Assembly: GCA_030680415.1 (NCBI GenBank)
Contig: JAUXVE010000066.1
Coordinates: forward strand, 30,899-94,898
Origin: Rubrivivax sp.
GTDB lineage: Bacteria > Pseudomonadota > Gammaproteobacteria > Burkholderiales > Burkholderiaceae_C
DNA length: 64,000 nt
Direction of reading: 5' to 3'
Below are positions 21,348-64,000 of the stretch, piece after piece (within the stretch, counting starts at the first letter, position 1; each line of letters starts with the position of its first letter). The notes beneath the pieces were generated by a model. That model saw only the letters and a list, made by a program, of their open reading frames with translations. It did not search any database and was not told where the DNA came from. Both the position numbers and the translations under genes were made by a program.

Positions 21348-22055
21348 GTGTCCAGCCGTTCGCTCAAGCCCCTCGAGCGCCAACCCGTGCTGGTCGAGCA
21401 GGTCTACGACGCGCTGCGCCTGCAGTTGCGCAATGGCGGCGTGCGCCCGGGTCAAGCCCTGCAGGAAGTGCGGATCGCCGAGCAACTGGGTGTCTCGCGC
21501 ACGCCGGTGCGCGAAGCGATGGCGCGGCTGGCCAGCGAGGGCCTGCTCGCCACCGATCGACGCAGCTTCACGGTGCCTGCGCTCACGCTGGCCGACGTCG
21601 ACGACATCTACGAGCTGCGCTGCCTGATCGAACCGGCCGCTCTGCGCCGCGTCGCGCAACTGGCCGGCGACGCCACGCTGCGACAGGACATCGACCGCGC
21701 CCTGGTCGACGCGGCGGGGGCCCATCGCGCGGGCGACAGCCAGGCCTTCCAGGACGCCAACGTGCGCTACCGCGCGGCGTGGCTGGCCCTGGTGCCCAAC
21801 CAGCGCTGGGTGCGCATGATCGAGCTGTACGCCGACCACATGCAGCACATCCGTGCCGTCACGCTCGGCAGCTCCAGCGTGCGCACGATCGTGCTGCGGG
21901 GCCTGAAGCGCATCACCGCCGCGCTGAGCACCGGCGACGGCGACGCCGCGGCCGCGGCCATGCACGAGCACCTGCTGCAGGCACGCCACGCCTTCATCCG
22001 TGCCGTCGGGCTCGACGGCCAGGCTGCGGTTCAACGAAGGAGCAAGGGCTCGTGA
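21348..22055 (+). CDS. GntR-family regulator (HTH + FCD) heading the iaa-like operon
   Basis: IAEQLGVSRTPVREAMARL HTH; GGAGG RBS near 21337; start at GTG 21348 or TTG 21342. Confidence 0.88.
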   Translation: MSSRSLKPLERQPVLVEQVYDALRLQLRNGGVRPGQALQEVRIAEQLGVSRTPVREAMARLASEGLLATDRRSFTVPALTLADVDDIYELRCLIEPAALRRVAQLAGDATLRQDIDRALVDAAGAHRAGDSQAFQDANVRYRAAWLALVPNQRWVRMIELYADHMQHIRAVTLGSSSVRTIVLRGLKRITAALSTGDGDAAAAAMHEHLLQARHAFIRAVGLDGQAAVQRRSKGS

Positions 22056-23263
22056 ACTACCTCGCCGCGATCCCCTACGGTGCCTACTGGTGCACGCCCT
22101 TCGCGCGCTGGCAGGGCAGTTTCGCCCACCTCCACAGCGTGGAGTTCGCGGCCCACGTGGCGCGGCGCGAGCTGGCGCGCCGCGGTATCGACGCGGCGCG
22201 CTTCGACTACGGCGTGCTCGGCTTTTCGGTGCCGCAGAAGCACTCGTTCTACGGCCTGCCTTGGCTGACGGGCCTGGTCGGCGCCACGCAGGCCGGCGGC
22301 CCGACCCTGATGCAGGCCTGCGCCACCGGCGTGCGCACGCTGCTCGCCGCCGCGCAGGAGATCGAGGTCGGCCTGGCCACCACGGCGCTGGTGATCAACT
22401 GCGACCGCACCTCCAACGGCCCGCACCTGTACTACCCCAACCCGCGCGGCCCCGGCGGCACTGGCGTGGCCGAGGACTGGGTGCTGGACAACTTCGGCTG
22501 CGATCCGCTGGGCGGGCACTCGATGCTCGCCACCGCGGAAAACGTCGCAATGCGACACGGCATCGACACGGCACAGCAGCACGAGGTGGTGCTGCACCGC
22601 GAAGCCCAGTACACGCAGGCCCTGGCCGACAACTCGGCCTTCCTGCGGCGCTTCATGACCCTGCCCTTCGAGGTGCCCGGGCCCGGCTTCAGGAAGACCG
22701 TGGCCGTGCTCGAAGGCGACGAGGGCATCTCGCACTCGACCGCCGCGGGGCTGGCCGCACTCAAGCCCGTCACTCCAGGCGGCAGCGTCACCTTCGGTGG
22801 CCAGACGCACCCGGCCGACGGCAACGCGGGCCTGCTGGTGACCACCCGCGAGCAGGCACGCGAGCTGGCGGTCAACCCGAAGATTGCGGTGCGCCTGCTC
22901 GGCTTCGGCCTGGCGCGCGCCGAACTGGCCTACATGCCCGAGGCCACGGTGCCGGCAGCGCAGCGCGCGCTCGCGCAGGCCGGACAGCGCATCGAGCAGA
23001 TGGCAGCCGTCAAGACGCACAACCCGTTCGCCCTCAACGACCTTCTTTTCGCGCGCAGCACCGGCATCGACTGGCGGACCATGAACAACTACGGGTGTTC
23101 GCTCGTCTGGGGTCACCCGCAAGCGCCGATGGGCACGCGCGCGATCATCGAACTGATCGAGGAGCTCGCGCTGCGTGGCGGCGGCTTCGGCCTGTTCACG
23201 GGCTGTGCGGCCGGCGACACCGCGATGGCGGTCGTGCTCGAGGTCTGCGATGCCGCGGCCTGA
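22052..23263 (+). CDS. iaaA: Thiolase (IaaA-like)
   Basis: Catalytic motifs QACATG, THNPFA, WGHPQ, GCAAG; symbol assigned from position in an iaa-type gene order. Confidence 0.72.
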   Translation: MNYLAAIPYGAYWCTPFARWQGSFAHLHSVEFAAHVARRELARRGIDAARFDYGVLGFSVPQKHSFYGLPWLTGLVGATQAGGPTLMQACATGVRTLLAAAQEIEVGLATTALVINCDRTSNGPHLYYPNPRGPGGTGVAEDWVLDNFGCDPLGGHSMLATAENVAMRHGIDTAQQHEVVLHREAQYTQALADNSAFLRRFMTLPFEVPGPGFRKTVAVLEGDEGISHSTAAGLAALKPVTPGGSVTFGGQTHPADGNAGLLVTTREQARELAVNPKIAVRLLGFGLARAELAYMPEATVPAAQRALAQAGQRIEQMAAVKTHNPFALNDLLFARSTGIDWRTMNNYGCSLVWGHPQAPMGTRAIIELIEELALRGGGFGLFTGCAAGDTAMAVVLEVCDAAA

Positions 23264-23346
23264 AGCGAGCCGAACCATGCGGCCGAAGCCGCGCGCCGAT
23301 GCCTGCCGGGCGAGTGGCGCGCCAGGCTGAGCCGGAGGCCGATGCG

Positions 23347-24897
23347 ATGCCGCTCGCCGACTGGATTGCCGCCCATGCCAGGCGCACGCCGGCCCGGGTC
23401 GCCGTTCGTTTCGAAGACCAGACCCTGAGCTACGGCGGCCTCGCGGCGCGTTGCGAACAGATCGCCGGCGCCCTGTGTGCGGCCGGGGTGGCGCGCGGCG
23501 AGCGTGTCGCCTGGCTGGGCCTGAACTGCCCGGCGATGCTCGCCACGCTGTTCGCCTGCGCCAGACTCGGCGCGATCTTCATGCCCCTGAACTGGCGCCT
23601 TGCGCCGGCCGAGCACAAGGCGATGCTGCACGACTGCCTGCCCGCGGTGCTGTGTGCCGACGACGCCTACGCCGCCGCCAGCGCCGCCGCAGGCATCGCG
23701 CCGGCAGGCACACGCTGCGTCGCACGCAGCGCCGCCCCTGCCGGCTGGACACGCTGGGACGCTTTCCTCGCCGCGGCGCGGCCGCCGGCAGCGAGCGAGG
23801 CGGCGGTGGACAACAGCGCGCCGCTGCTGCTGTGCTACACCTCGGGCTCGACGGGGCGGCCCAAAGGCGTGCTGCTGAGCCAGGACGCCCTGGCCGCCAA
23901 CGCCGACGCCAGCGTCGACATGCACGCGATGACCAGCGACGACCGCGTGCTGACGACGCTGCCGCTGTTTCACGTCGGCGGCCTGAACATCCAGACCACG
24001 CCGGCGCTGCGCACCGGTTGCACCGTCGTGCTGCACGCCCGCTTCGACCCCGATGCCGTGTTCGACGCCATCGAGCGCGAACGCATCACGCTGACCGTGC
24101 TGGTGCCGGCGCAACTCGACGCGATGATCGCGCACCCGCGCTGGGCCCACGCCGACCTCTCGAGCCTGCGCATGATCAGCACCGGTTCGACGATGGTGCC
24201 CGAGCGCCTGATCCGCACCGTGCACGCACGCGGCGTGCCGCTGGTGCTGGTCTGGGGCGCCACCGAAACCGCGCCCATCGCGGCCTGCCTGCATGCCGAC
24301 GAGGCCATGCGCAAGGTCGGCTCGACCGGTCGCGCCGCCGCCGGGTGCGAACTGCGCATCGTCGACGCCGCCGGCCGCGACGCCGCACCGGGCAGCAGCG
24401 GCGAGATCCTCGTGCGCGGGCGCACCGTGATGAGCGGCTACTGGCGCGATGCGCCCGCCACCGCCAGGGCGCTGGCCGGAGGCTGGTACCACTCGGGCGA
24501 CAGCGGTCACTTCGACGACGACGGCTATCTCCATGTCGATGGCCGGCTCAAGGACATGATCATTTCGGGCGGCGAGAACGTCAGTCCGGCCGAAGTCGAA
24601 GCGGTGCTGCTCGAGTGCCCGGCCGTGGCCGAGGCGGCCGTCGTCGGCCGCGCCGACGAGCGCTGGGGCGAGGCGGTCGTCGCCGTCGTCACGGCGGCGC
24701 CCGGCGCGACGCTCACCGCCGAGCGCGTGATGGCCCTGTTCGACGGCCGGCTCGCGCGCTTCAAGCAACCCAAGCAGGTGTTCGTCGTCGACGCGCTGCC
24801 GCGCACGGCGCTGGGCAAGGTGCGCAAGGAAGAGGTGCGGCAGCTCGTCGCCCGTCTGGGCGCAGCGGCGCCCATCCACGTGGGGCGTATCGAATGA
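23347..24897 (+). CDS. iaaB: Acyl-CoA ligase (IaaB-like indoleacetate-CoA ligase)
   Basis: YTSGSTGRPKG, WGATET, SGDSG, DGRLKDMIISGGEN, PRTALGK; symbol from synteny. Confidence 0.7.
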   Translation: MPLADWIAAHARRTPARVAVRFEDQTLSYGGLAARCEQIAGALCAAGVARGERVAWLGLNCPAMLATLFACARLGAIFMPLNWRLAPAEHKAMLHDCLPAVLCADDAYAAASAAAGIAPAGTRCVARSAAPAGWTRWDAFLAAARPPAASEAAVDNSAPLLLCYTSGSTGRPKGVLLSQDALAANADASVDMHAMTSDDRVLTTLPLFHVGGLNIQTTPALRTGCTVVLHARFDPDAVFDAIERERITLTVLVPAQLDAMIAHPRWAHADLSSLRMISTGSTMVPERLIRTVHARGVPLVLVWGATETAPIAACLHADEAMRKVGSTGRAAAGCELRIVDAAGRDAAPGSSGEILVRGRTVMSGYWRDAPATARALAGGWYHSGDSGHFDDDGYLHVDGRLKDMIISGGENVSPAEVEAVLLECPAVAEAAVVGRADERWGEAVVAVVTAAPGATLTAERVMALFDGRLARFKQPKQVFVVDALPRTALGKVRKEEVRQLVARLGAAAPIHVGRIE

Positions 24898-27023
24898 GTC
24901 TCAAGATCGGCATCGACGTCGGCGGCACCTTCACCGACTTCGTCGTCGCCCGCGACGGCGAGCCGCCGCGCATCCACAAGACCCTGTCGACGCCGGCCGA
25001 CCCGTCGATCGCCGTCGTCGAGGGGCTGGCGCAGATCGCCGCGGGCATGCACCCGCCGCCGACCTTGCAGGAGTTCGCGCGCTCGATCGGCACCATCGTG
25101 CACGGCACGACCGTGACCACCAACGCCACGCTCACCAGCAGCGGCGCGCGCTGCGCGCTGCTGACCACCGAGGGCGTGCGCGATGCGCTGGAGATGCGCC
25201 GCGGCGTGCGCGAGGAGCAGTACAACAACCGCTATACCAACGTGCGCCCGCTGGTGCCACGCGAGCGCCGCATCGGCATCCGCGGCCGCATCGACCGCGA
25301 CGGCGCCCAGACCACGCCGCTCGACCTCGACGCAGTGCGCGCGGCGCTGGCGCTGTGGCGCGCCGACGGTGTGCAGGCCGTCGCGCTGTGTTTCATGAAC
25401 GCCTACGCCAACCCGGCGCATGAGCAGGCGGCGGCCGAGATCGTGCGGCGCGAGCTGCCCGACGCGTACTTGTCGGTGTCCACCGACGTGTTGCCGTCGA
25501 TCCGCTTCTACGACCGCGTCAGCACCACGGCGCTGAATGCCTACGTCGGCCCCAAGCTCGAGCATTACCTCGACCAGCTGGTCGAGCGGCTCGCCGGCAT
25601 CGGCTTCGGCGGGCTGCTGCTGATCATGCAGTCCAACGGCGGCGTGATCTCGCCGCAGGCGGCGCGCGACAAGGCAGCCTTGACGCTGCTGTCGGGGCCG
25701 GCCGGCGGGCCCGGCGCGGGGCTGTTCTATGTCGCTGCGCACGGGCAGCGGCGCTGCATCACCACCGACATGGGCGGCACCAGTTTCGAGGCCTCGGTCG
25801 CGGTGGGTGCGCCGATGGTCAAGAACGACGGCGAGATCGCGCGCCACCGGATCGCGCTGCCGATGCTCGACATCCACACCATCGGCGCCGGTGGCGGCTC
25901 GATCGGCTGGCTCGACGAAGGAGGCCTGCTGCGCATGGGCCCGCACAGCGCCGGCGCCGACCCCGGCCCGGCCTGCTATGGCCGCGGCGGCCGGCTGCCC
26001 ACCACCACCGACGCCAATGCCGTGCTCGGCTACCTCGACCCGGCGTTCTTTGCCGGCGGCCGCATGACGCTGGACGTGCAGGCGGCGCGGCGCGCGATCG
26101 AAGAGCACATCGCGCAGCCGATGGGGCTGAGCATCGAGCAGGCGGCCGCCGGCATGTACCGCGTGGCCTGCAACAACATGGCACAGGGCGTGCGTGAGGT
26201 GACCATCAAGCGCGGTTTCGACCCGCGCGAGTTCCCGCTCATTCCCGGCGGCGGCGCCGGCCCGATCCACGGCTGCCTGATCTGCAGCGAGCTCGGCATC
26301 CCGCTGCAGATCGTGCCGCGCGAGGCCTCGGTGCTGTGCGCCTTCGGCATGCTGATGAGCGAGCTGCGGCACGACTTCGTGCGCACCTTCGTCGCCCGCC
26401 TGGAAGGCATCGACTGGGCGCGTCTGTCGGCGCTGGTCGCGGCGATGGCGGCCGAGGGCACACGCCTGCTCGCCGCAGAGGGCATCGAAGCCGCACGCCG
26501 GCGCGTCGACCTGCGGCTGGATTGCCGCTACGTCAAGCAGTACCACGAGGTCTCGGTGGCGGTGCCGGGGGATCTGGTCGAGCGCCGCGACGCCGGCGCC
26601 ATCGCGGCCGCGTTCCATGCCGAACACCTGCGTCTGTACGGCTACTCGCTGCAGGCCGAGGGCTCGGCGGTCGAGATCATCAACGTGCGGCTGCAGGCGA
26701 TCGGCGCCACCGAGCGCCCAACCTACCGCAGCGAGGCGGCAGGCGACGCCGACGCCAGCCCGGCGCTGAAGGGCCGACGCCGCGTCTACGTTCCCGAGCG
26801 CGACGCCTACGCCGAGGTGGCGGTCTACGACGGCCACCGCATGCGCAGCGGCCAGCGCCTCGCCGGGCCGGCGCTGATCGAACAGGAGACCACCGCGATC
26901 CTGGTCAGCGACTCCTTCGACTGCGTGGTCGACGCGCTCGGCTCGTTCGTGCTCTACGCCAAGGGCCGGGAAGACCTGGTGGCCGCCAGCCTGCAGCAAG
27001 GGCAAGAGGAGGTGTGCAAGTGA
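24894..27023 (+). CDS. iaaC: Hydantoinase A/oxoprolinase-family ATP-dependent amidohydrolase subunit (IaaC-like)
   Basis: IDVGGTFTD, HGTTVTTNA, MQSNGG, LSGPAGG, DMGGTS, IGAGGGS, AGADPGPACYG. Confidence 0.78.
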   Translation: MSLKIGIDVGGTFTDFVVARDGEPPRIHKTLSTPADPSIAVVEGLAQIAAGMHPPPTLQEFARSIGTIVHGTTVTTNATLTSSGARCALLTTEGVRDALEMRRGVREEQYNNRYTNVRPLVPRERRIGIRGRIDRDGAQTTPLDLDAVRAALALWRADGVQAVALCFMNAYANPAHEQAAAEIVRRELPDAYLSVSTDVLPSIRFYDRVSTTALNAYVGPKLEHYLDQLVERLAGIGFGGLLLIMQSNGGVISPQAARDKAALTLLSGPAGGPGAGLFYVAAHGQRRCITTDMGGTSFEASVAVGAPMVKNDGEIARHRIALPMLDIHTIGAGGGSIGWLDEGGLLRMGPHSAGADPGPACYGRGGRLPTTTDANAVLGYLDPAFFAGGRMTLDVQAARRAIEEHIAQPMGLSIEQAAAGMYRVACNNMAQGVREVTIKRGFDPREFPLIPGGGAGPIHGCLICSELGIPLQIVPREASVLCAFGMLMSELRHDFVRTFVARLEGIDWARLSALVAAMAAEGTRLLAAEGIEAARRRVDLRLDCRYVKQYHEVSVAVPGDLVERRDAGAIAAAFHAEHLRLYGYSLQAEGSAVEIINVRLQAIGATERPTYRSEAAGDADASPALKGRRRVYVPERDAYAEVAVYDGHRMRSGQRLAGPALIEQETTAILVSDSFDCVVDALGSFVLYAKGREDLVAASLQQGQEEVCK

Positions 27024-52472: not shown

Positions 52473-52530
52473 GGACATTCGACATCGGCCTGCGCCGAAC
52501 CGACTTGGGTATGGGGTCCGTGCACGGCGC

Positions 52531-53232
52531 TCATCCCGTGTGCAGGAAGTGCCGGCTCGTGCCGTCGAGGACGAGGCAGGTCAGCACGCCGCTGCGGTGG
52601 GCCCCGGTGTCGATGCCGATGCGATTCGGGCGCAGTTGTGGCCGTTCGGAGATGCTGTGCCCATGCACGACGACCGCGCCGTGATCGAGCGTCGACTCGA
52701 GGAACGGCGCGCGGATCCACATCAGGTCGTGCGCGGCCTGCCGTTCGAGTGGCACCCCCGGTCGGACCCCGGCGTGGACAAAGAAGTAGTCGCCGCAATG
52801 GTGGCAATAGTCGGTCGAGCGCAGGAAACTGAGGTGCGCCGACGGCAGCACCGCGTCGAAAGCGTCGCGCAGGGCAGCAACAGTTGCGTTCTCGCGTCGA
52901 CGGCGGCCGGCGACGTCGACGCCGTAGTCGGCCAGCGTGTCGAGACCGTCGTAGTCGAACCAATGGCGGCCGGCATCGAGGTCGCCGTCGAGAAAGCGCA
53001 GCCAGAGGTCCTCATGGTTGCCGCGCAGCGTGATGCGGGTAAAGCCCGGTGGCGGGGCGGCAACCATCGTCTCGACGACGCGCCTGGAGTCGGCGCCCCG
53101 GCTCACGTAGTCGCCCAGATAGACCAGGCGCCGCTGGCGCGCCGGCCGCCGCGCCGCGTCGGCTTCGATCGAGACCAGAAGGGCCTGCAGCAAGTCGAAG
53201 GGGCCATGGATGTCACCGATCGCGTAGATCAC
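52531..53232 (-). CDS. Calcineurin-like metallophosphoesterase (PPP/PrpA-like)
   Basis: GDIHG, GDYVSRG, RGNHE, VHAG, VHGH, GIDTG. Confidence 0.87.
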   Translation of the reverse strand: MIYAIGDIHGPFDLLQALLVSIEADAARRPARQRRLVYLGDYVSRGADSRRVVETMVAAPPPGFTRITLRGNHEDLWLRFLDGDLDAGRHWFDYDGLDTLADYGVDVAGRRRRENATVAALRDAFDAVLPSAHLSFLRSTDYCHHCGDYFFVHAGVRPGVPLERQAAHDLMWIRAPFLESTLDHGAVVVHGHSISERPQLRPNRIGIDTGAHRSGVLTCLVLDGTSRHFLHTG

Positions 53233-53255
53233 GGTCCCGGCCGCCGTGCTCGCGC

Positions 53256-53855
53256 CTATCTCGGCGTTCGTCGCGGCTCCTTCGTGTCGGCGCCGTGGCC
53301 GGTCCAGCGCTGGAACAGGTCGTGCTCGATGCCGACCTGGTCGAGCGCCTTGCCCAGGGTCTGGTGAATGAGGTCCATGATCGTGCGTGGCCGGTGGTAG
53401 AACGCGGGCATCGGCGGCAGCAGCACCGCGCCACAGTCGGCCGCGCGTGTCATCAACTCCAGGTGTCCCCTGTGCAGCGGTGTCTCGCGCACCAGCAGCA
53501 CCAGCTTGCGCCCCTCCTTGAGCTGTACGTCGGCGGCACGCACGACCAGGTTGTAGGTGAACGAATTGGCGATCGCCGACAGCGTCTTCACCGTGCAGGG
53601 CGCGACGATCATGCCGCGTGTGCGGAACGATCCGCTCGCCACCGCGGCGCCGATGTCCTTGTTGCTGTAGACGATGTCGGCCAGCGCACGCACCTCTTCC
53701 AGCGTGTCGTCGGTCTCGATCGTCAGGTTCATGCCGGCCGCCTCGCTGAGGATCAGGTGCGTCGGCTGGCCCAGGCTCTTGAGCACGCGCAGCAGTTCGA
53801 CGCCGTAGATGACGCCGGTGGCGCCGGTGATGGCCACGATCAGGGGCAAGGTCAT
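53256..53855 (-). CDS. ubiX: Flavin prenyltransferase
   Basis: VAITGATG, IASGSF-like VASGSF, APCTVKTL, RAADVQLKEGR, RETP, PPMPAFY. Confidence 0.92.
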   Translation of the reverse strand: MTLPLIVAITGATGVIYGVELLRVLKSLGQPTHLILSEAAGMNLTIETDDTLEEVRALADIVYSNKDIGAAVASGSFRTRGMIVAPCTVKTLSAIANSFTYNLVVRAADVQLKEGRKLVLLVRETPLHRGHLELMTRAADCGAVLLPPMPAFYHRPRTIMDLIHQTLGKALDQVGIEHDLFQRWTGHGADTKEPRRTPR

Positions 53856-53883
53856 GAGTGGATCCTGTGCACGGGCATGGGGT

Positions 53884-54570
53884 TCAGGTGGCGAGCGCGG
53901 GCTGCTGCGCATCGACCGACTCGATGACCGGAATCCCGGCCGCCGCCAGCGCCGCGGCGACCTCGAGCACGTCGGCAGCGTGGAAACGGACGATGATCTT
54001 GTGCTCGACGAGGTCGTTGTCGATCTCCGCGTCGTGGCGGCCCAGCATCGGGTAGATCGCCTGCAGGACGGCGCCGGCGCCCTCGGCCACTTCGGCGATG
54101 CGCCCGATGACGCCGGCTCCGAGCCTGACGGGCCCGGTGGTGATGCCGCTGCAGCGCTGCCAGGCGCCCAGGCAATGCGCCGCGATCTGGAAGATCTCGT
54201 TGGCCGAGATCACGCCGACGACCCGATCGCCCTCGAGCACCGGGAACTGCGCGACGCCGAGTTCCCGACCCTTGCGCAGGCAGTATTCGATGGTGTCGCC
54301 GGCCTGAACCGTGCCCGGGTTGCGCACCATGACGTCGCGAACCCGCAGCCGGGTGACGAAGTAGTTGAACTCGTCGCTGTCCTGCGTGCGCAGCACGAAG
54401 TGGCCCATGCGCAACAGGTTGGCGCGTGTGACGAGGCCGCGAAGCCGACCGTCGTCGACCACCGGCAAGGCATGCAGGTTGTTCTCGCTGAGGATGCGCT
54501 TGGCCTCGGAGACCAGCGTGTCGCTCGCGATCGTCAACGGATCGGTCTGCATCCAGGTGCGCACGATCAT
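53884..54570 (-). CDS. ppsC: Phenylphosphate synthase gamma subunit (CBS pair + ACT-like)
   Basis: MIVRTWMQTDP...SEAKRILSENNLHALPVVDDGRLRG closely resembles remembered Thauera PpsC. Confidence 0.85.
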   Translation of the reverse strand: MIVRTWMQTDPLTIASDTLVSEAKRILSENNLHALPVVDDGRLRGLVTRANLLRMGHFVLRTQDSDEFNYFVTRLRVRDVMVRNPGTVQAGDTIEYCLRKGRELGVAQFPVLEGDRVVGVISANEIFQIAAHCLGAWQRCSGITTGPVRLGAGVIGRIAEVAEGAGAVLQAIYPMLGRHDAEIDNDLVEHKIIVRFHAADVLEVAAALAAAGIPVIESVDAQQPALAT

Positions 54571-54582
54571 CGCCGGCTCCTT

Positions 54583-55824
54583 TCAGCCCAAGGCCCGCGA
54601 CAGGCGATACAGACGCACGAACTCGTCGACGGCGACGCGTGCGAACTCGGGTGTGTACAAGTGAAGGTCGAATTCCTTGATGCGGGCCCGATCGTCGATG
54701 CGCTCCTTCAGGCGCGCGACGAAAGCGGCGTTGGCCTGCGGGTCGTGGATCGGGCGGCCGGCGCGGTCGAGCGACGACCAGCCCTGCAGCGGCACGAGGA
54801 AGCTCCACTCGCCGCGCGCCGCGTTGAGCCGCTCGGCAATGACGTCGGCGGCCTGGCGCAGTTCGTCGGCAGTGGTGCGCACCTGCACCCGAAGTGCGTC
54901 CTGCACGTACTGCACGCGGTCCTTCGTCTTGTCCAGCATATCGGCGCGGCCGCCGTAGGACAGGATGTCCAGCCCGCAGGGCGCCAGCACGGTCGGGATG
55001 CCGGCGGCGGCCGCCGCCTTCAGCCGGTCCGGCCCCGGGTCGCGGTTGCCCTTGAACAGGTGCTCCATGACGCCGCCGATGCAGATGTCGACCACGCCCT
55101 GGAAGGCGCCGTCGCGGATCATCTCCTCCATCGCCTTGTCGCCCTTGCCCTGGGCATGGCAGACGATCGGCGTGAAGCCCGCCTGCTCGAGCATGCCAAT
55201 GGCGGCCTGCACCGCCATCTCGCCGAAGCCGAAGGACGAGATCGCCACGCAGGGCTGGTCGAAGCGGAAGTCGATGCCCAGCGTCATCTCGACCATGCCG
55301 CAGATGGCGCCCACCGCGTTGACGATCTGCGCCTTCAGCAGCGGGTTCATCTTGACGATGTCGAGCACCGTGTGGTGCATCGTGATGTCGCGCGTGCCGA
55401 CGTACTGGTCGATGTAGGCCGGGTGCGCGGCCATCGGCGAGGCCATCAGCTTCGGCAAGCCGAAGGGCAGCGTCTTCATGATCGACGTGGCCACCAGTGT
55501 CGCGGTGCCGCCGCCGATGCCGATGATGCCGTGTACCCGGCCCGCCTGCACCAGCTCGGCGACGATGGCCGCCGCGCCGCGGATCTGGTTGCGCGTGGCG
55601 GTGTCGCGGTCGCTGCGGTACTTCTCGCGCACCACCTCGATCGGCAGGCCGCCGCGCGCCGCCACGTCCTCGGTGCGGATGTCGCCCGGGAACGGCGGTG
55701 GCTCTTCCATGCTGAAGTCGAGCAGGATCGGCTCGTGCCCGCGCCCGGCGATGAGGTCCTTGACGAAGGCGATGTCTTCGCCGCGCGTGTCCAGGTTACA
55801 GACGATGACGATGCCTTTTCTCAT
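54583..55824 (-). CDS. Tm-1-like ATP-binding domain protein (UPF0261)
   Basis: NLDTRGED, GIGGGTAT, LPFGLPKLM, SSFG, HAQGKG, APCGLD, PLQGWSSLD; start at ATG 55824 or GTG 55836. Confidence 0.8.
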   Translation of the reverse strand: MRKGIVIVCNLDTRGEDIAFVKDLIAGRGHEPILLDFSMEEPPPFPGDIRTEDVAARGGLPIEVVREKYRSDRDTATRNQIRGAAAIVAELVQAGRVHGIIGIGGGTATLVATSIMKTLPFGLPKLMASPMAAHPAYIDQYVGTRDITMHHTVLDIVKMNPLLKAQIVNAVGAICGMVEMTLGIDFRFDQPCVAISSFGFGEMAVQAAIGMLEQAGFTPIVCHAQGKGDKAMEEMIRDGAFQGVVDICIGGVMEHLFKGNRDPGPDRLKAAAAAGIPTVLAPCGLDILSYGGRADMLDKTKDRVQYVQDALRVQVRTTADELRQAADVIAERLNAARGEWSFLVPLQGWSSLDRAGRPIHDPQANAAFVARLKERIDDRARIKEFDLHLYTPEFARVAVDEFVRLYRLSRALG

Positions 55825-55846
55825 GCCGACCGCCACCGGGTTCGCG

Positions 55847-57352
55847 TCACTTGGCCTTCTTGGCTTCGGGCCGCGTCAGCCGGTTGATCATGCCGGCCAC
55901 CGGGCTGGCGCCGGCAAAGCCGTACTCGCTCCAGCGATCCGACACCTTCTGCAGCACGGCGCGGTCCATGAAGATCTCGCTCGGCTTGTTCTTCCACTCG
56001 AACGGCGTGCAGGCGTCGAGGATGATGCGGCTGGTGATCTCGCGCGCCTCGATCGGCAGCCCGGGGTCGAGCGGCGTCGAGCGGCCGCGGTCGATGATCT
56101 GCGCCGAGCGCTTGGGGTCGAAGCGCGTGGCCAGCGCCCACCAGATGCGGTCCCAGTCGTCGGCCTCGATGTCGTGGTCGACCGTGATCACGCCCTTGAC
56201 GCCGTAGTGCCCGGTGGTGCTGGCGATGACGGCGTTGCCGACGTGGTTCGAGTGCCCCGGGTACATCTGCTTGACCGAGACCACGACCCAGAAGCGGCCG
56301 CAGGCCTCGGGCGGGATGTAGACGCTCTGGATGCCCGGCACCTTCATCGTCTCGAGGTCGTGCCACAGCGTGGCGGTGCGGTTGAGCGACTGGATCATGT
56401 GGATGTCGTTGATCGGCTTGCCCACCGTCGTCGACCACATCACCGGCTTGTTGCGATGCAGGATGCGCTTGATGCGCAGCACCGGCTTCGGATAGTCCTT
56501 GCCCTTGTTGCCGGAGTAGTAACCCGTGTACTCGCCGAACGGCCCTTCGTCCATCAGCTCGTTGGGGTCGATGAAACCCTCGGCGATGATCTCGGCGTTG
56601 GCCGGCAGCGTCAGGCCGGTGACCTCGGACTTGAACACCGGCACCGGCCGGCCGCGCAGCGAGCCGGCGATGTCGTATTCGTCGACCTGCGCGCTGACCA
56701 GCGTCGAGGCGGCCAGGAACAGCACCGGGTCGCAGCCGACGACAGCCGCCGCGGGCATCAGCTCGCCGCGCTCCTGGTATTTCTTCATGTGCATGTCGCC
56801 ATGCTTGCCCTTGATGATCTGCGAGCCCAGGATGTCCCTGGCGAGCACCTGCGAGCGGTAGGTGCCCAGGTTCGTCCAGCCGGTGTCGGGGTCTTGCGTG
56901 ACCAGGAAGCCGGAGGTGACGAAGAAGCGGCCGCCGTCGTCCGGATAGAACCAAGGCGAGGGGAATTTCTCGATGTCGATGTCGGCGCCGGTGATCTGGT
57001 TCTCCATCACCGGCGGGTTGTCCACATGCACCGGCTTGACCATCTGCTTGGTGGTCAGCTCCATCCACTTCTTCGACAGCTGGCTCATCGACAGCGAGGG
57101 GTCCTGCTCGAGCGCGATCGCCAGCCGCTGCGCGGTGGTGAAGGCGCTGGTGAAGACCGGGATGTCGTAGCCCTTGACGTTCTCGTACAGCAGCGCCGGG
57201 CCCTTCTGTTCCTCGTTGACCTTCGAGACGTGGCAGAGCTCGAACTTCCAGTCGACCTCGGTCTTCACGCGGTGCAGTTGCCCGCTGGCCTCGAGTGCCG
57301 CGATGTAGCTGCGCAGGTCGTCGATGGGCCGGATGTCGTGGCGTGCATTCAT
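55847..57352 (-). CDS. ppcB: UbiD-family prFMN (de)carboxylase, phenylphosphate carboxylase beta-like
   Basis: EVDWKFELCHVSK, NLGTYR, EGPFGEYTGYY, RTATLW, GRFWVVVSVKQMYPGH, GRSTPLDP resemble remembered PpcB; located in a pps operon. Confidence 0.78.
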   Translation of the reverse strand: MNARHDIRPIDDLRSYIAALEASGQLHRVKTEVDWKFELCHVSKVNEEQKGPALLYENVKGYDIPVFTSAFTTAQRLAIALEQDPSLSMSQLSKKWMELTTKQMVKPVHVDNPPVMENQITGADIDIEKFPSPWFYPDDGGRFFVTSGFLVTQDPDTGWTNLGTYRSQVLARDILGSQIIKGKHGDMHMKKYQERGELMPAAAVVGCDPVLFLAASTLVSAQVDEYDIAGSLRGRPVPVFKSEVTGLTLPANAEIIAEGFIDPNELMDEGPFGEYTGYYSGNKGKDYPKPVLRIKRILHRNKPVMWSTTVGKPINDIHMIQSLNRTATLWHDLETMKVPGIQSVYIPPEACGRFWVVVSVKQMYPGHSNHVGNAVIASTTGHYGVKGVITVDHDIEADDWDRIWWALATRFDPKRSAQIIDRGRSTPLDPGLPIEAREITSRIILDACTPFEWKNKPSEIFMDRAVLQKVSDRWSEYGFAGASPVAGMINRLTRPEAKKAK

Positions 57353-57400
57353 GTTCGCTCCGTTTCGGTGGGGGGTTCGTGAAGGGTGGGAGAGGGGCGC

Positions 57401-58537
<1,137 letters not shown>

Positions 58538-58538
58538 C

Positions 58539-60374
58539 TCAGCGCGTGATGGTGACGGCGCCGGTCGAACCGTCGACGCGGATCATCATGCCGGTCCTGA
58601 TGATCTTCGTCGCATGCCCGGTGCCCACCACCGCGGGCATGCCGTATTCGCGGCAGACGATCGCCGCGTGGCTCATCACGCCGCCAACGTCGGTGATGCA
58701 GGCGCCGATCTTGGCGAAGGCCGGTGCCCACGACGGCGAGGTCGTCGGCGCCACCAGGATCTCGCCTTCGAGCAGTTCACCCACTTCGCCGACCGTGCGG
58801 CACACCCTGGCCTTGCCTTCGGCGATGCCGGGGCTGCCGGCAAAGCCCTTCAGTTCGGTGATGGTGTCGGGGTCGGCCACCTCCTGCACCGAAGCCCAGT
58901 CGGCGAGCGACTTGTTGGTCACGCCCCAGAGCACGATGGTGAAAGGCTCTTGAATCACCTCGGGGGCGGTGCCGATGGCTGGCGGCGGGCTCCACTCCTT
59001 GAACTTCGCCATCACGCCCTTGCGCCACTCGATCTCGGCCGGCCAGGTCTGCGTGCCGCGCGGCGTGACACCGGTGGCCCAGGCGGTGACGATGTCCCAC
59101 AAGGCCGACTTGATCTCGTCGCGGCGCAGCAGCCAGATGTCCTCGACATCGGCGATGACGCCGTGCTCCTGCATGATCGCGCCGACCTCGCGCATCTTGT
59201 TCCAGAACACGGAGTGGAACCAGTGTTCGACGTAGAAGAGGTGGTTCTCGACGTACGGGAACACGGTCTTGGCGCAGCCCAGCAGCTCGTCGAACTGCGC
59301 CAGGTCCTCGGGCTTTTCGATCAGCGCGCGGTACTCGGCAGTGATGCGGTCGCGCTCGGCGCGCACCTTCTCGGTCGGGCGGTCGATCGAGGCGCCGGAC
59401 TTCAACTTGCCGATGTAGGTCTGGATGCCCGACAGCGGCACATCCATCTGGTCGTTCCACGAGCGGTCGTGGTGGAACCAGCCGGTGCCGGTGGAGATGT
59501 TGAACCAGGGTTCGCGGGCCAGGCTCAGCGAGCTCAGCCAGTCCATGCCCTTGGGCAGCTTCTTCAGCGCCTCCTCGACCACCGCGAAGCGCGGGCTGAA
59601 GGCCACGACCTCGTCGACGCCGAGTTCGATCGCCCGGCGCGCGAGCTTCTTGAGCTCCTCGTCGGGCTGGTACATGATGACGTCGATGCCCGAGATCATC
59701 TGCGTCACCCGCTGCGCCGGGATGTTGGGGAATAGCTTCTGGGCGAAGTCGAGGAAGAACACGTAAGCGGCGTAGCCGAGGTTCAGGAACTCGAAGTGGT
59801 ACTGCCAGCACTTGATGCCGAGGTTGATCAGGTCGTCGTAGTTCTTCAGCAGGTGGTAGCCCTTGGATTCGCCCAGTGCGTCGGTCACCACCGAGATGTC
59901 CTCCATCTCGGCCAGGCGCGGGATCTGCAGCGCCTCGAGCTCGCGGATGGTGGCCTCCATCTTGACCTTCCACCTGGCTTCGAGCGCGTCCCAGTTCTTG
60001 TAGTAGTGGCCGGCGCGCTCCATGAAGTGCGGCACCCGGGCGCCGATCTCGGCGCCGTCCTTGACCGGCACCGGCGAGATGTAGACGTAGCCGTTGATGA
60101 TGCGGTGGTCGACGCCGCGCACCGGTGGCACCATGAAAATGCGGTTGTTGAACTGCGACAGCGCCAGGAACCAGGCCTCGTCCCAGATGGTGTCGAAGGG
60201 ATAAAGCGGCTCCGGATAGTGCAGCCCGTCGTAGAACCAGAACGTGTCCTTCTCGTACTGCTGGCGCACCGCATCGTCGGTGACGAACTGGTATTGGTAT
60301 GGATACATCCGCTCCCAGCCTTCGGTGCCGGGGATCGTCTTGGCCTTCACGTCGTGCGGAACCGGAAATTTCAT
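58539..60374 (-). CDS. ppsA: Phenylphosphate synthase alpha subunit (phospho-His)
   Basis: MKFPVPHD...TIPGTEGWERMYPY, DGLHYPEP, GGVMSHAAIVCRE; very close to remembered Thauera PpsA, 611 aa. Confidence 0.92.
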   Translation of the reverse strand: MKFPVPHDVKAKTIPGTEGWERMYPYQYQFVTDDAVRQQYEKDTFWFYDGLHYPEPLYPFDTIWDEAWFLALSQFNNRIFMVPPVRGVDHRIINGYVYISPVPVKDGAEIGARVPHFMERAGHYYKNWDALEARWKVKMEATIRELEALQIPRLAEMEDISVVTDALGESKGYHLLKNYDDLINLGIKCWQYHFEFLNLGYAAYVFFLDFAQKLFPNIPAQRVTQMISGIDVIMYQPDEELKKLARRAIELGVDEVVAFSPRFAVVEEALKKLPKGMDWLSSLSLAREPWFNISTGTGWFHHDRSWNDQMDVPLSGIQTYIGKLKSGASIDRPTEKVRAERDRITAEYRALIEKPEDLAQFDELLGCAKTVFPYVENHLFYVEHWFHSVFWNKMREVGAIMQEHGVIADVEDIWLLRRDEIKSALWDIVTAWATGVTPRGTQTWPAEIEWRKGVMAKFKEWSPPPAIGTAPEVIQEPFTIVLWGVTNKSLADWASVQEVADPDTITELKGFAGSPGIAEGKARVCRTVGEVGELLEGEILVAPTTSPSWAPAFAKIGACITDVGGVMSHAAIVCREYGMPAVVGTGHATKIIRTGMMIRVDGSTGAVTITR

Positions 60375-60456
60375 GTCATGTCTCCTGGACTCGTCGGTGG
60401 CTGGCGCCGCAGGGCAGCGCAACGTTGGCGCGACCTGCCGGTCGTTGCGATTCCAT

Positions 60457-60472
60457 TGCATAGGCCGTGCCA
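60457..60472 (-). promoter_or_regulatory. sigma54 -24/-12 promoter of the pps/ppc operon
   Basis: Minus strand TGGCAC-GGCCT-ATGCA, 82 bp upstream of ppsA. Confidence 0.85.
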
Positions 60473-60599
60473 CGCCGCCTGCGCGCCTTGCCGACGGCGC
60501 ACGCGCAGGGGTCGAGTTGCCCGTGCAGGCACGGGCGACGAATCCGCGCGCAGGGCGGCCCGGTGCAGGCGTTGAGGGGCGGCGCGGCGCCATCGGCGC

Positions 60600-60655
60600 T
60601 TGATCACTTGGTGAGATTGGGCGCCTCGCATGGTGCGAACTGACCATTTGGTGAA
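60600..60655. promoter_or_regulatory. Paired XylR/DmpR-type upstream activating sequences
   Basis: TTGATCACTTGGTGAG (60600-60615) and CTGACCATTTGGTGAA (60640-60655); 12/16 and 11/16 matches to TTGATCAATTGATCAA; about 130-185 bp upstream of the -24. Confidence 0.6.
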
Positions 60656-60707
60656 CTGCGGCGCGGCCGCCGGGCCGTCGCACCACAAGGGCTGTTCGCA
60701 GAAAGCC

Positions 60708-60721
60708 TTGACCCACATCAA
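60708..60721. promoter_or_regulatory. FNR/CRP-family box upstream of the XylR-type regulator
   Basis: TTGACCCACATCAA, 13/14 identical to the hcr box; possible -10 TAGAAG at 60744-60749. Confidence 0.7.
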
Positions 60722-60776
60722 GGCGGCCCCCAGCGTCCGGGCCTAGAAGCGAATCCCTCGTGACGACAGTCCATCG

Positions 60777-62512
<1,736 letters not shown>

Positions 62513-62513
<1 letters not shown>

Positions 62514-62998
62514 TGTTGCCGAAGCTGCCGCTCCGGGTGGCGCAGTATCTGCAGCAGCATCACGTCATGACCTTGGCCAGCCAGGGCGCCGAGGGTCCCT
62601 GGGCCGCCGCCGTGTTCTACGCCAACGAGGGTCCGGAACTGCTCTTCCTGTCTGCGCCCACCAGCCGCCACTGCCGCCATCTGGCGCAGGACCCGCGCTG
62701 CGCGGCGACGATCCAGGACGATTGCAGCGACTGGACGCAGGTTCAGGGCATCCAGCTGGAGGGACAGGTGACGCAGCTGCAGGGCGAATCGCAGGCGCGC
62801 GCGCAGCGGCTCTACGGGCAGAAGTTTCCGTTCCTCGAACGCGCAGGCGCGATCCCGGCCGCGATCGCCGCAGCACTGGCCCGCGTGCGCTGGTATCGCC
62901 TGCAACCCCGGCGGCTGTACTTCGTCGACAACAGCCAGGGATTCGGTCACCGCGACGAGATCGAACTGGGTCGCGGCGCAGCGCTCCCGCCCGCGTAG
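62513..62998 (+). CDS. Pyridoxamine 5'-phosphate oxidase-like FMN-binding split-barrel protein
   Basis: HVMTLAS, WAAAVFYA, SRHCRHL, QGIQLEG; TGATG overlap with the regulator. Confidence 0.78.
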
Positions 62999-63035
62999 CG
63001 GCAGCTCAGCGTCGCAGCAGATCAGGGGCTGCCGC

Positions 63036-63281
63036 TCAGCCGTGCAGGCTCTCGTACTTGGCCATCAACTCGGCCGGACTTTCGGCGAAGTCCGGGTTCG
63101 GGACGATGCAATCGGCCGGGCACACCAGCATGCACTGCGGCTCGTCCTCGGCGCCGACACACTCGGTGCAGCGCAGGGCGTCGATGACGTAGATCGGGTC
63201 GCCGACGGCGATGGCTTCGTTGGGGCACACCGGCTTGCAGGCGTCGCAAGCGGTGCAGTCGTCGTTGATCAGCAGGGCCAT
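63036..63281 (-). CDS. fdx: 2[4Fe-4S] ferredoxin of the benzoyl-CoA pathway type
   Basis: CTACDAC...CP and CTEC-x8-C-x3-CP; MALLINDDCTACDAC is very close to remembered Thauera aromatica ferredoxin. Confidence 0.9.
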   Translation of the reverse strand: MALLINDDCTACDACKPVCPNEAIAVGDPIYVIDALRCTECVGAEDEPQCMLVCPADCIVPNPDFAESPAELMAKYESLHG

Positions 63282-63324
63282 CGTGGGTTGCTCCTGAGAA
63301 GGTTGTGTCAAAGGTGGGACGGGC

Positions 63325-63525
63325 TCAGACCGTGGCGGCGGTCTCGAGCTGGCGCAGTTTGCCGTGGCGGAACGCGCCCCACAGCGCCGCGCCGATGGCG
63401 CCGGCATAGATCGAGTCGGGGTGCGAGACGGCCGTCACGGCGTTGAGGTGCAGGTCCTCGAACGGCGCTTCGCAGCGCGCCACGAGGCGCAGGACTTCGG
63501 GGCCATCCGGTGTGTCGGTGCTCAT
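63325..63525 (-). pseudogene. bcrC/bcrD: Chimeric bcrC'-'bcrD deletion scar (benzoyl-CoA reductase remnant)
   Basis: N-terminal VARCEAPFEDLHLNAV resembles BcrC start (IIARCEALYEDLDF); C-terminal HPDSIYAGAIGAALWGAFRH resembles BcrD end; directly upstream of fdx. Confidence 0.8.
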
Positions 63526-63526
63526 G

Positions 63527-63619
63527 TCAACGGTGCTCCCATGCGGGTGTGCGGCGTTCGATGAAGGCGGCCATCGCCCGCTCGGCGCCCACGGCCGGCG
63601 GCAGGTGTGTTGACTGCGG
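63527..63619 (-). pseudogene. Crotonase-family (Dch-like) C-terminal remnant
   Basis: HLPPAVGAERAMAAFIERRTPAWEHR*; the frame is closed upstream by TGA and the stop lies 1 bp before the bcrC' ATG. Confidence 0.5.
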
Positions 63620-63744
63620 TCATCAGCCAGCGATGGGCGACCGTGTTCATCGGCATCGTCTTCACTTTGCGGGTCGTTCGGCAGGCAGTGGAGCGGGCTG
63701 TGACCGGTTGCCGAAGCGCTTGACGGGGGTGCTCGCCACTATTG

Positions 63745-63760
63745 CGGTATTGTGGTACCG
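63745..63760. promoter_or_regulatory. Putative operator CGGTA-N6-TACCG in an AT-richer promoter region
   Basis: CGGTATTGTGGTACCG; 13/14 core identity with 9467-9480. Confidence 0.5.
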
Positions 63761-64000
63761 AATTACGTCTTATGGCAAGTTGTTCCCCGCCATGATGTGC
63801 TTCTACTTGGGTTGCACGTTGTGGTCAGGGTCGGCTGCTGTCTCACCAGCTGCCGGCCCTCCGTGTCGCTGATCCGCAGCGGCCTCGGTGGCCAGCATGC
63901 CGGGCCGGGCGCGGTGTTCGGTCAGGCAGGTATCGGCTCAACGCGCCGGATCCCCGCGAACCTCTCCGGCTGCTGTCGAGCCTCCCACAGGTCTCGCGCT

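Follow-up and report, generated by a model that had tools for sequence, protein, structure and literature searches.

What does an open reading frame (ORF) of 66 codons represent, if it begins like BcrC, ends like BcrD and directly precedes a ferredoxin gene? The ORF lies near the end of a 64,000-nt stretch of DNA from Rubrivivax sp. (hereafter, the window), which corresponds to positions 30899-94898 of contig C13 in a MAG of 167 contigs (4.76 Mb, 96% complete, 4.2% contamination). Our analysis indicates that this ORF is very probably the scar of a 4,590-bp in-frame deletion in a decayed copy of a benzoyl-CoA reductase gene cluster, the junction being read from one MAG assembly. The relevant features are given below in the order of transcription; C20 and C66 are two other contigs of the same bin and MAG52 is a related genome.

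63922..64000, minus strand, 3' part of higA, which continues on the contig to window coordinate 64233
63749..63778, minus strand, putative sigma-70-like promoter TTGCCA-18-CACAAT, about 100 nt upstream of had' (consensus match only)
63522..63665, minus strand, 47-codon ORF in the had' frame, running through the scars and stopping at an ATGA that overlaps the bcrC' start
63616..63650, minus strand, had' head, start codon plus 11 codons, 35 nt (local alignment to C20 21613-21652, with the had start at 21618)
63606-63615, minus strand, 10-nt filler between had' and oah'
63565..63605, minus strand, internal oah' fragment, 41 nt, approximately Oah residues 184-197 (90% identical to C20 23261-23301)
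63565..63573, minus strand, older junction oah'::'dch with the 9-bp microhomology TGGCCGCCT (same junction in MAG52 contig C155)
63527..63573, minus strand, 'dch tail, last 15 codons plus the TGA stop (63527-63529), 47 nt (part of the match to C20 24563-24699)
63325..63525, minus strand, bcrC'::'bcrD chimeric ORF, 66 codons (DNA and protein matches, TIGR02261 fragment, ORF list)
63437..63525, minus strand, bcrC' head, start codon plus 29 codons (DNA and protein match to C20 bcrC)
63437..63442, minus strand, deletion junction, 6-bp microhomology CGCCGT, with one copy each in bcrC codons 28-30 and in bcrD
63325..63442, minus strand, 'bcrD tail from the junction to the native bcrD stop, last 37-38 codons (matches to C66 bcrD and MAG52 contig C372)
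63282..63324, minus strand, native bcrD-fdx spacer of 43 nt with an AGGAG ribosome-binding site (read from the sequence)
63036..63281, minus strand, fdx, intact gene for an 81-aa YfhL-type 2[4Fe-4S] ferredoxin (NF033683, 113.8 bits, cut-off 86)

The original prediction had assigned the two halves of the ORF (translation MSTDTPDGPEVLRLVARCEAPFEDLHLNAVTAVSHPDSIYAGAIGAALWGAFRHGKLRQLETAATV) to the start of BcrC and the end of BcrD, and had proposed to search each half against these proteins. Both assignments hold. In a tblastn search, residues 1-30 matched the N-terminus of the bin's own BcrC (C20:24611-25801) with 87% amino acid identity (E 4e-10), and residues 29-66 matched the C-terminus of BcrD (C66:15342-16193; BcrD residues 246-283) with 95% identity (E 3e-16). 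The whole-genome search at the DNA level gave the same picture. Window positions 63573 to 63437 correspond to C20 24563-24699 (94.9% over 137 nt, E 2.5e-55), a match that spans the last 48 nt of dch, the overlap between the dch stop and the bcrC start, and the first 89 nt of bcrC. Positions 63442 to 63323 correspond to C66 15459-15340 (95.8% over 120 nt, E 8e-49), which includes the last 118 nt of bcrD; this tail is also 96.7% identical to MAG52 contig C372. We considered the N-terminal half as a diverged BcrD and rejected this reading, because BcrD fragments align at residues 14-29 with scattered identities only, BcrC matches 26 of the 30 residues, and the DNA match continues into dch.

Resemblance of the halves does not make the ORF a member of either family. 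Membership in BcrD or BcrAD_BadFG asks for a complete acetate/sugar-kinase-type ATPase fold of ~260-280 residues and a score above the family cut-off. The chimeric ORF aligned with positions 241-262 of the 262 in NCBIfam TIGR02261 (benz_CoA_red_D; E 1.2e-6, 27.9 bits against a cut-off of 312.85) and scored 16.7 bits with PF01869 (BcrAD_BadFG), below the cut-off of 31.5; all but the last BcrD helix is absent. Likewise, BcrC membership asks for a full-length HGD-D domain of ~390 residues (intact BcrC has 396), while the ORF is BcrC-like over residues 1-30 only and gave no HGD-D (PF06050) match by Pfam. Since both the HGD-D domain of BcrC and the ATPase/cluster-binding domain of BcrD are missing, the ORF is not an enzyme, but a pseudogene scar, a by-product. 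The fusion as a whole has no homologue, being a singleton among 5.8 billion clustered proteins, and the same chimera was found in none of 60 related genomes, where all matches fall in intact clusters.

The DNA matches to C20 and C66 overlap by six nucleotides, CGCCGT, at 63437-63442, inside the interval 63435-63445 in which the join had been expected. A search with the neighbouring PNPOx-like protein identified the homologous locus in JACZKT010000545.1 of Rubrivivax sp. isolate MAG52. This contig (L034, or C73) aligns to window 52511-63442 with 97.1% identity over 10,934 bp and ends its match exactly at the junction; its last 21 nt (GGAAATGGTCAACGAGAAGGT, ..EMVNEKV) are genuine bcrD, identical to C66. 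In MAG52 (G061), contigs C155, C372 and C73 are chained by identical 141-nt overlaps. C155 carries lysC, tRNA-Ser, 254 nt, the had'::oah'::'dch scar region and the head of bcrC; C372 (4,841 bp) carries intact bcrC, bcrB, bcrA and bcrD; on C73 the bcrD tail is followed by fdx and further genes. In the intact C372 a distance of 4,590 bp (3 x 1530) separates the two CGCCGT copies, which explains why the reading frame is kept. In five further relatives the equivalent end-points lie 4.6-4.7 kb apart with intact genes between them. Because the MAG52 match ends at the junction and continues as bcrD, and because the repeats are 4,590 bp apart, the junction reads as an in-frame deletion at the present locus. 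MAG52 thus retains, between the counterparts of the two halves, the intact sequence expected for a deletion scar, its linkage being derived from the 141-nt contig overlaps. As to size, the original prediction of an in-frame deletion stands, but its estimate of 4-4.5 kb was slightly low compared with the 4,590 bp measured on the intact homologue of this 97%-identical relative. Neither join, bcrC'::'bcrD or oah'::'dch, turned up when JGI metagenome contigs were scanned with degenerate patterns.

The two loci are otherwise much alike. Their flanks are 95-97% identical, with lysC and tRNA-Ser on one side and fdx, the PNPOx-like gene, the sigma-54 regulator and pps genes on the other, and the had'::oah'::'dch scar is common to both. 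They differ in the 4,590 bp of intact bcrCBAD between the CGCCGT copies of MAG52 and in a 2.39-kb integrase-higBA insert, which MAG52 lacks. The path from C155 through C372 to C73 appears in the overlap graph and agrees with the arrangement on C13. However, a second MAG52 contig with intact had-oah-dch, C544, also enters the C372 node, so that the upstream contig linked to fdx in MAG52 is ambiguous. This leaves some room for a different origin of a real junction, namely illegitimate recombination between two bcr loci as part of a larger rearrangement, in which the bcrC head came from the tRNA-Ser-linked copy and the bcrD tail from a separate, fdx-linked copy. The entry of both C155 and C544 into the single bcrCBAD contig of MAG52 would agree with such an event, as would the two diverged bcrA/bcrD lineages in the bin, and the ancestral linkage of the tRNA-Ser scar to fdx is itself a reconstruction. 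Yet this scenario needs both an inter-locus event and a chromosomal rearrangement where one 4,590-bp intra-locus deletion is enough; moreover, the sole exit contig from C372 is C73, which bears fdx, and on both sides the scar is flanked by sequence collinear with the MAG52 contigs linked via C372. We therefore regard it as quite improbable.

Somewhat less probable still is an assembly artefact, in which C13 would be chimeric at 63437-63442 and the real genome would have an intact bcrCBAD there, as MAG52 appears to have. The MAG is fragmented, C20 and C66 both end inside bcr genes, which indicates that the assembler had trouble with this gene family, and odd chimeras with BcrD tails, such as L23'::'bcrD, do occur on tiny metagenome contigs. 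On the other hand, the two sides share 6 bp only, and a de Bruijn (k-mer) assembler could make such a join only from reads that cross it. Relative to the bin's only other dch/bcrC copy, the head has 7 differences in 137 positions; relative to C66, the tail has 5 in 120; as the remnant differs by 4-5% from both copies, C13 is not a mis-join of C20 and C66. In addition, C13 is unbranched for 63 kb on one side of the junction and for 3.6 kb on the other, and the older scar 130 bp away was recovered independently in MAG52.

With the deletion at the present locus as the preferred reading, the sequence upstream of the chimeric ORF reveals that the decay extends further. The original prediction of a collapsed operon is borne out for one copy of the cluster only, and there the collapse is larger than proposed: of had, oah and dch, too, only stubs remain (35, 41 and 47 nt). 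The oah' fragment maps inside C20 oah (22710..23837) and inside the oah genes of relatives; at the oah'::'dch junction 1,270 bp are missing relative to C20. MAG52 has the same had'::oah'::'dch scar on C155, which places those deletions before the two genomes diverged, whereas the bcrC'::'bcrD deletion, seen in the present genome only, is younger.

The Thauera cluster belongs to the class I, ATP-dependent benzoyl-CoA reductase of the Thauera type. The order of the remnants (had', oah', 'dch, bcrC', 'bcrD, fdx) and their orientation are the same as in the clusters of Thauera aromatica and Thauera sp. MZ1T. The Thauera gene organisation is had-oah-dch-bcrCBAD-fdx (PMC6449761). All eight genes are intact in this order (had-oah-dch-bcrC-bcrB-bcrA-bcrD-fdx) in the five more distant relatives. 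Unlike the Thauera clusters, the present locus has only fdx whole among the eight genes, the stubs measuring 35-118 nt, and its host is a Rubrivivax-like Burkholderiales MAG. Eight collinear genes on one strand define a Thauera-type cluster; the locus conforms to this as a remnant, collinear with C20 and the five relatives, and not as a functional cluster. A literature search for bcr remnants, or for bcr in Rubrivivax, found no report.

In bacteria, deletions between short direct repeats arise by RecA-independent slipped-strand or illegitimate recombination and create fused pseudogene ORFs. Both mapped junctions here fit this type, with direct repeats of 6 and 9 bp of which one copy is kept in each case. 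Nothing mechanistically different is apparent, the mechanism being suggested by the junction sequences alone.

The remaining coding stub shows signs of relaxed constraint. Two substitutions in the bcrC' head, L21P and F27L, alter residues that do not vary among seven intact BcrC sequences (RCEALFEDLHFNAV). The identity of the head to MAG52 is 93.4%, and that of the upstream scar region 89.8%, compared with 97.1% (coding) and 95.2% in the flanks. This is the relaxation expected of a deletion-scar pseudogene, seen in a small sample of 30 codons. Least probable of all is a selected function for the 66-aa fusion, either as a small protein or as a leader peptide whose frame is maintained to control translation of fdx: the oah'::'dch and bcrC'::'bcrD joins both keep frame, the had'-frame ORF ends in ATGA on the bcrC' start, and the native bcrD stop and pre-fdx spacer are kept, but frame retention has a chance of 1/3, invariant BcrC positions are substituted, the fusion lacks any homologue, and fdx carries its own AGGAG site. 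Furthermore, read in either of its other two frames, the tail meets a stop codon immediately or 27 nt past the native one, in both cases ahead of the fdx ribosome-binding site, so that retention of the frame is of little consequence.

The original prediction had also suggested searching the genome for other bcr genes, and these are indeed present. C20 carries had (21618..22685), oah (22710..23837), dch (23830..24609) and bcrC (24611..25801), followed by bcrB, bcrA and, where the contig ends, the first 68 codons of bcrD; of these bcr genes, bcrC, bcrB and bcrA are complete. On C66 lie the end of a bcrA and a full bcrD, whose 283-aa product scores above the TIGR02261 cut-off (424.5 bits). As judged from gene content, the benzoyl-CoA reductase pathway is not lost. 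With reductase genes present on other contigs of the bin, the locus represents ordinary gene decay in a redundant copy of a known cluster.

C20 and C66 overlap by ~750 nt (bcrA 3' end plus bcrD 5' end). We considered them as alleles of one bubble that could be merged into one operon, and rejected this because the identity is 84% and there are no shared exact ends. The end of C20 is about equally distant (75-83%) from all relatives. The first 3.6 kb of MAG52 C372 agree with C20 at 98-100% identity, and its last 0.85 kb agree with C66 at 97-100%. The bin, with its 4.2% contamination, contains all four subunit genes, and C20 and C66 both stop at contig ends. It is likely that the organism has one complete bcrCBAD operon. 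We also observed that C20 28349-28836 and C66 15976-16476 represent two versions of the bcrA 3'/bcrD 5' region (81-84% identical nucleotides), with BcrD N-termini 63.5% identical in amino acids; the two versions could correspond to two operon copies, to two strains or to recombination. A separate peculiarity of C20 is a stretch of ~130 nt between bcrC and bcrB (25801-25938) that is absent from MAG52, where the two genes abut. The stretch matches at least 12 other sites in the MAG52 genome with 79-91% identity, and in view of these many matches it looks like the insertion of a small REP/MITE-like repeat.

The one gene that survives whole at the scar is fdx. As originally noted, it occupies the position it has in bcrCBAD-fdx: it lies 43 nt downstream of the chimeric ORF, and the order is the same in five relatives. 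Its product belongs to the NF033683 ferredoxins by score, by the presence of all eight cysteines and by its position directly after bcrD, as in relatives. The gene is identical to that of MAG52 at 242 of 246 nt, and the 46 nt from the bcrD stop to the fdx start contain one mismatch. The protein is 95% identical to the product of the fdx that follows bcrD in one relative (G002) and 79-84% identical to those in four others. By orthology, Fdx would donate electrons to benzoyl-CoA reductase. No other ferredoxin gene in the bin is of the bcr type; two paralogues, with 70% and 57% amino acid identity, adjoin a PFOR-like gene (C126) and coaD (C102). Downstream of bcrD, C66 has a convergent methyltransferase gene in place of fdx. 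The putative promoter upstream of had' was the one site found where 0.0 were expected, and the block around it is conserved in MAG52; the original upstream region may thus still drive transcription of fdx.

These observations bring up a tentative reading, which we consider possible but unlikely, that two copies of the benzoyl-CoA cluster have decayed in a complementary manner, the enzymes residing on C20 and/or C66 without fdx, and fdx at the tRNA-Ser copy. The tRNA-Ser copy, for its part, has lost all seven enzyme genes and keeps the bin's only bcr-type fdx, with the original upstream region still ahead of it. If complementary decay were true, the reductase would depend on a ferredoxin from the scarred second locus, and such subfunctionalisation at the operon level would lock both loci and explain why every deletion stops short of fdx.

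Returning to the deletion scar as the favoured interpretation, its history can be proposed as follows. A copy of a Thauera-type had-oah-dch-bcrCBAD-fdx cluster would have stood beside lysC and tRNA-Ser(GCT), and would have been taken apart stepwise by deletions at short repeats (microhomologies). The older events would have reduced had, oah and dch to their stubs, the oah'::'dch join forming at a 9-bp repeat, and this older state would be the one common to MAG52, where intact bcrCBAD-fdx still appear to follow. In the younger event, confined to the present genome, the 4,590 bp between the CGCCGT hexamers would have been lost, so that bcrC now breaks off at codon 30 and bcrD resumes 38 codons ahead of its stop. 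By chance the frame would have survived, and the resulting 66-codon ORF uses the native start of bcrC and the native stop of bcrD. With benzoyl-CoA reductase genes elsewhere in the genome, the loss was probably tolerated. Transcripts that begin upstream of had' and run through the two small coupled ORFs may still reach the spared fdx, and Fdx may supply the reductase in trans.

The scar reveals no new enzyme, pathway or mechanism. Its main importance lies in annotation and in the inference of metabolism from MAGs. An annotation pipeline could label the ORF 'benzoyl-CoA reductase subunit D' or score the locus as a bcr operon, although no reductase is encoded there, and the ferredoxin that the reductase would need sits at the scar, apart from the enzyme genes. 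It also provides a clean, datable case of stepwise operon erosion through deletions at 6-9-bp repeats, with an intermediate kept in a 97%-identical relative.

Beyond the scar, the insert that distinguishes the locus from that of MAG52 occupies C13 94678-97066 (window 63780-66168, mostly past the window end) and starts right after the 3' end of tRNA-Ser(GCT); MAG52 has 254 nt in its place. It codes for a P4-type integrase, a 95-aa ORF, HigB (PF05015, E 3e-18) and HigA (HTH_3). In the integrase, Pfam matched the arm-binding and central domains only; as its catalytic domain had no match at E<=0.01, the enzyme may be degenerate. No att direct repeat for the insert was found on C13. An insert backbone with 74-75% similarity, without higBA, is present at C11 12219-12495.

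Short ORFs with a BcrD tail (..SHPDSIYAGAIGAALWGAFRH..) before fdx and with foreign heads were also seen on three metagenome contigs, L027, L028 and L029 (632, 625 and 811 bp). L027 has ribosomal L23'::'bcrD, then fdx; L028 has bcrD, then fdx'::'bcrD; L029 reads fdx, DUF59'::'bcrD, fdx, DUF59, its two fdx/DUF59 copies differing slightly. All of these joins lie 0-8 codons upstream of SHPDS. They may be assembly chimeras of tiny contigs, junctions of tandem duplications, or a bcrD 3' end that travels with fdx. Short BcrD-tail ORFs on long contigs were considered as further remnants and rejected, P0100 being a frameshift fragment from an error-rich long-read assembly.

On the fdx side, window 52511-63036, 97% identical to MAG52, carries the sigma-54 regulator (60777..62513), the PNPOx-like gene (~62516..62998) and phenylphosphate synthase-like genes. 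Given the latter, the scarred bcr locus directly adjoins a phenol-degradation cluster in both genomes.
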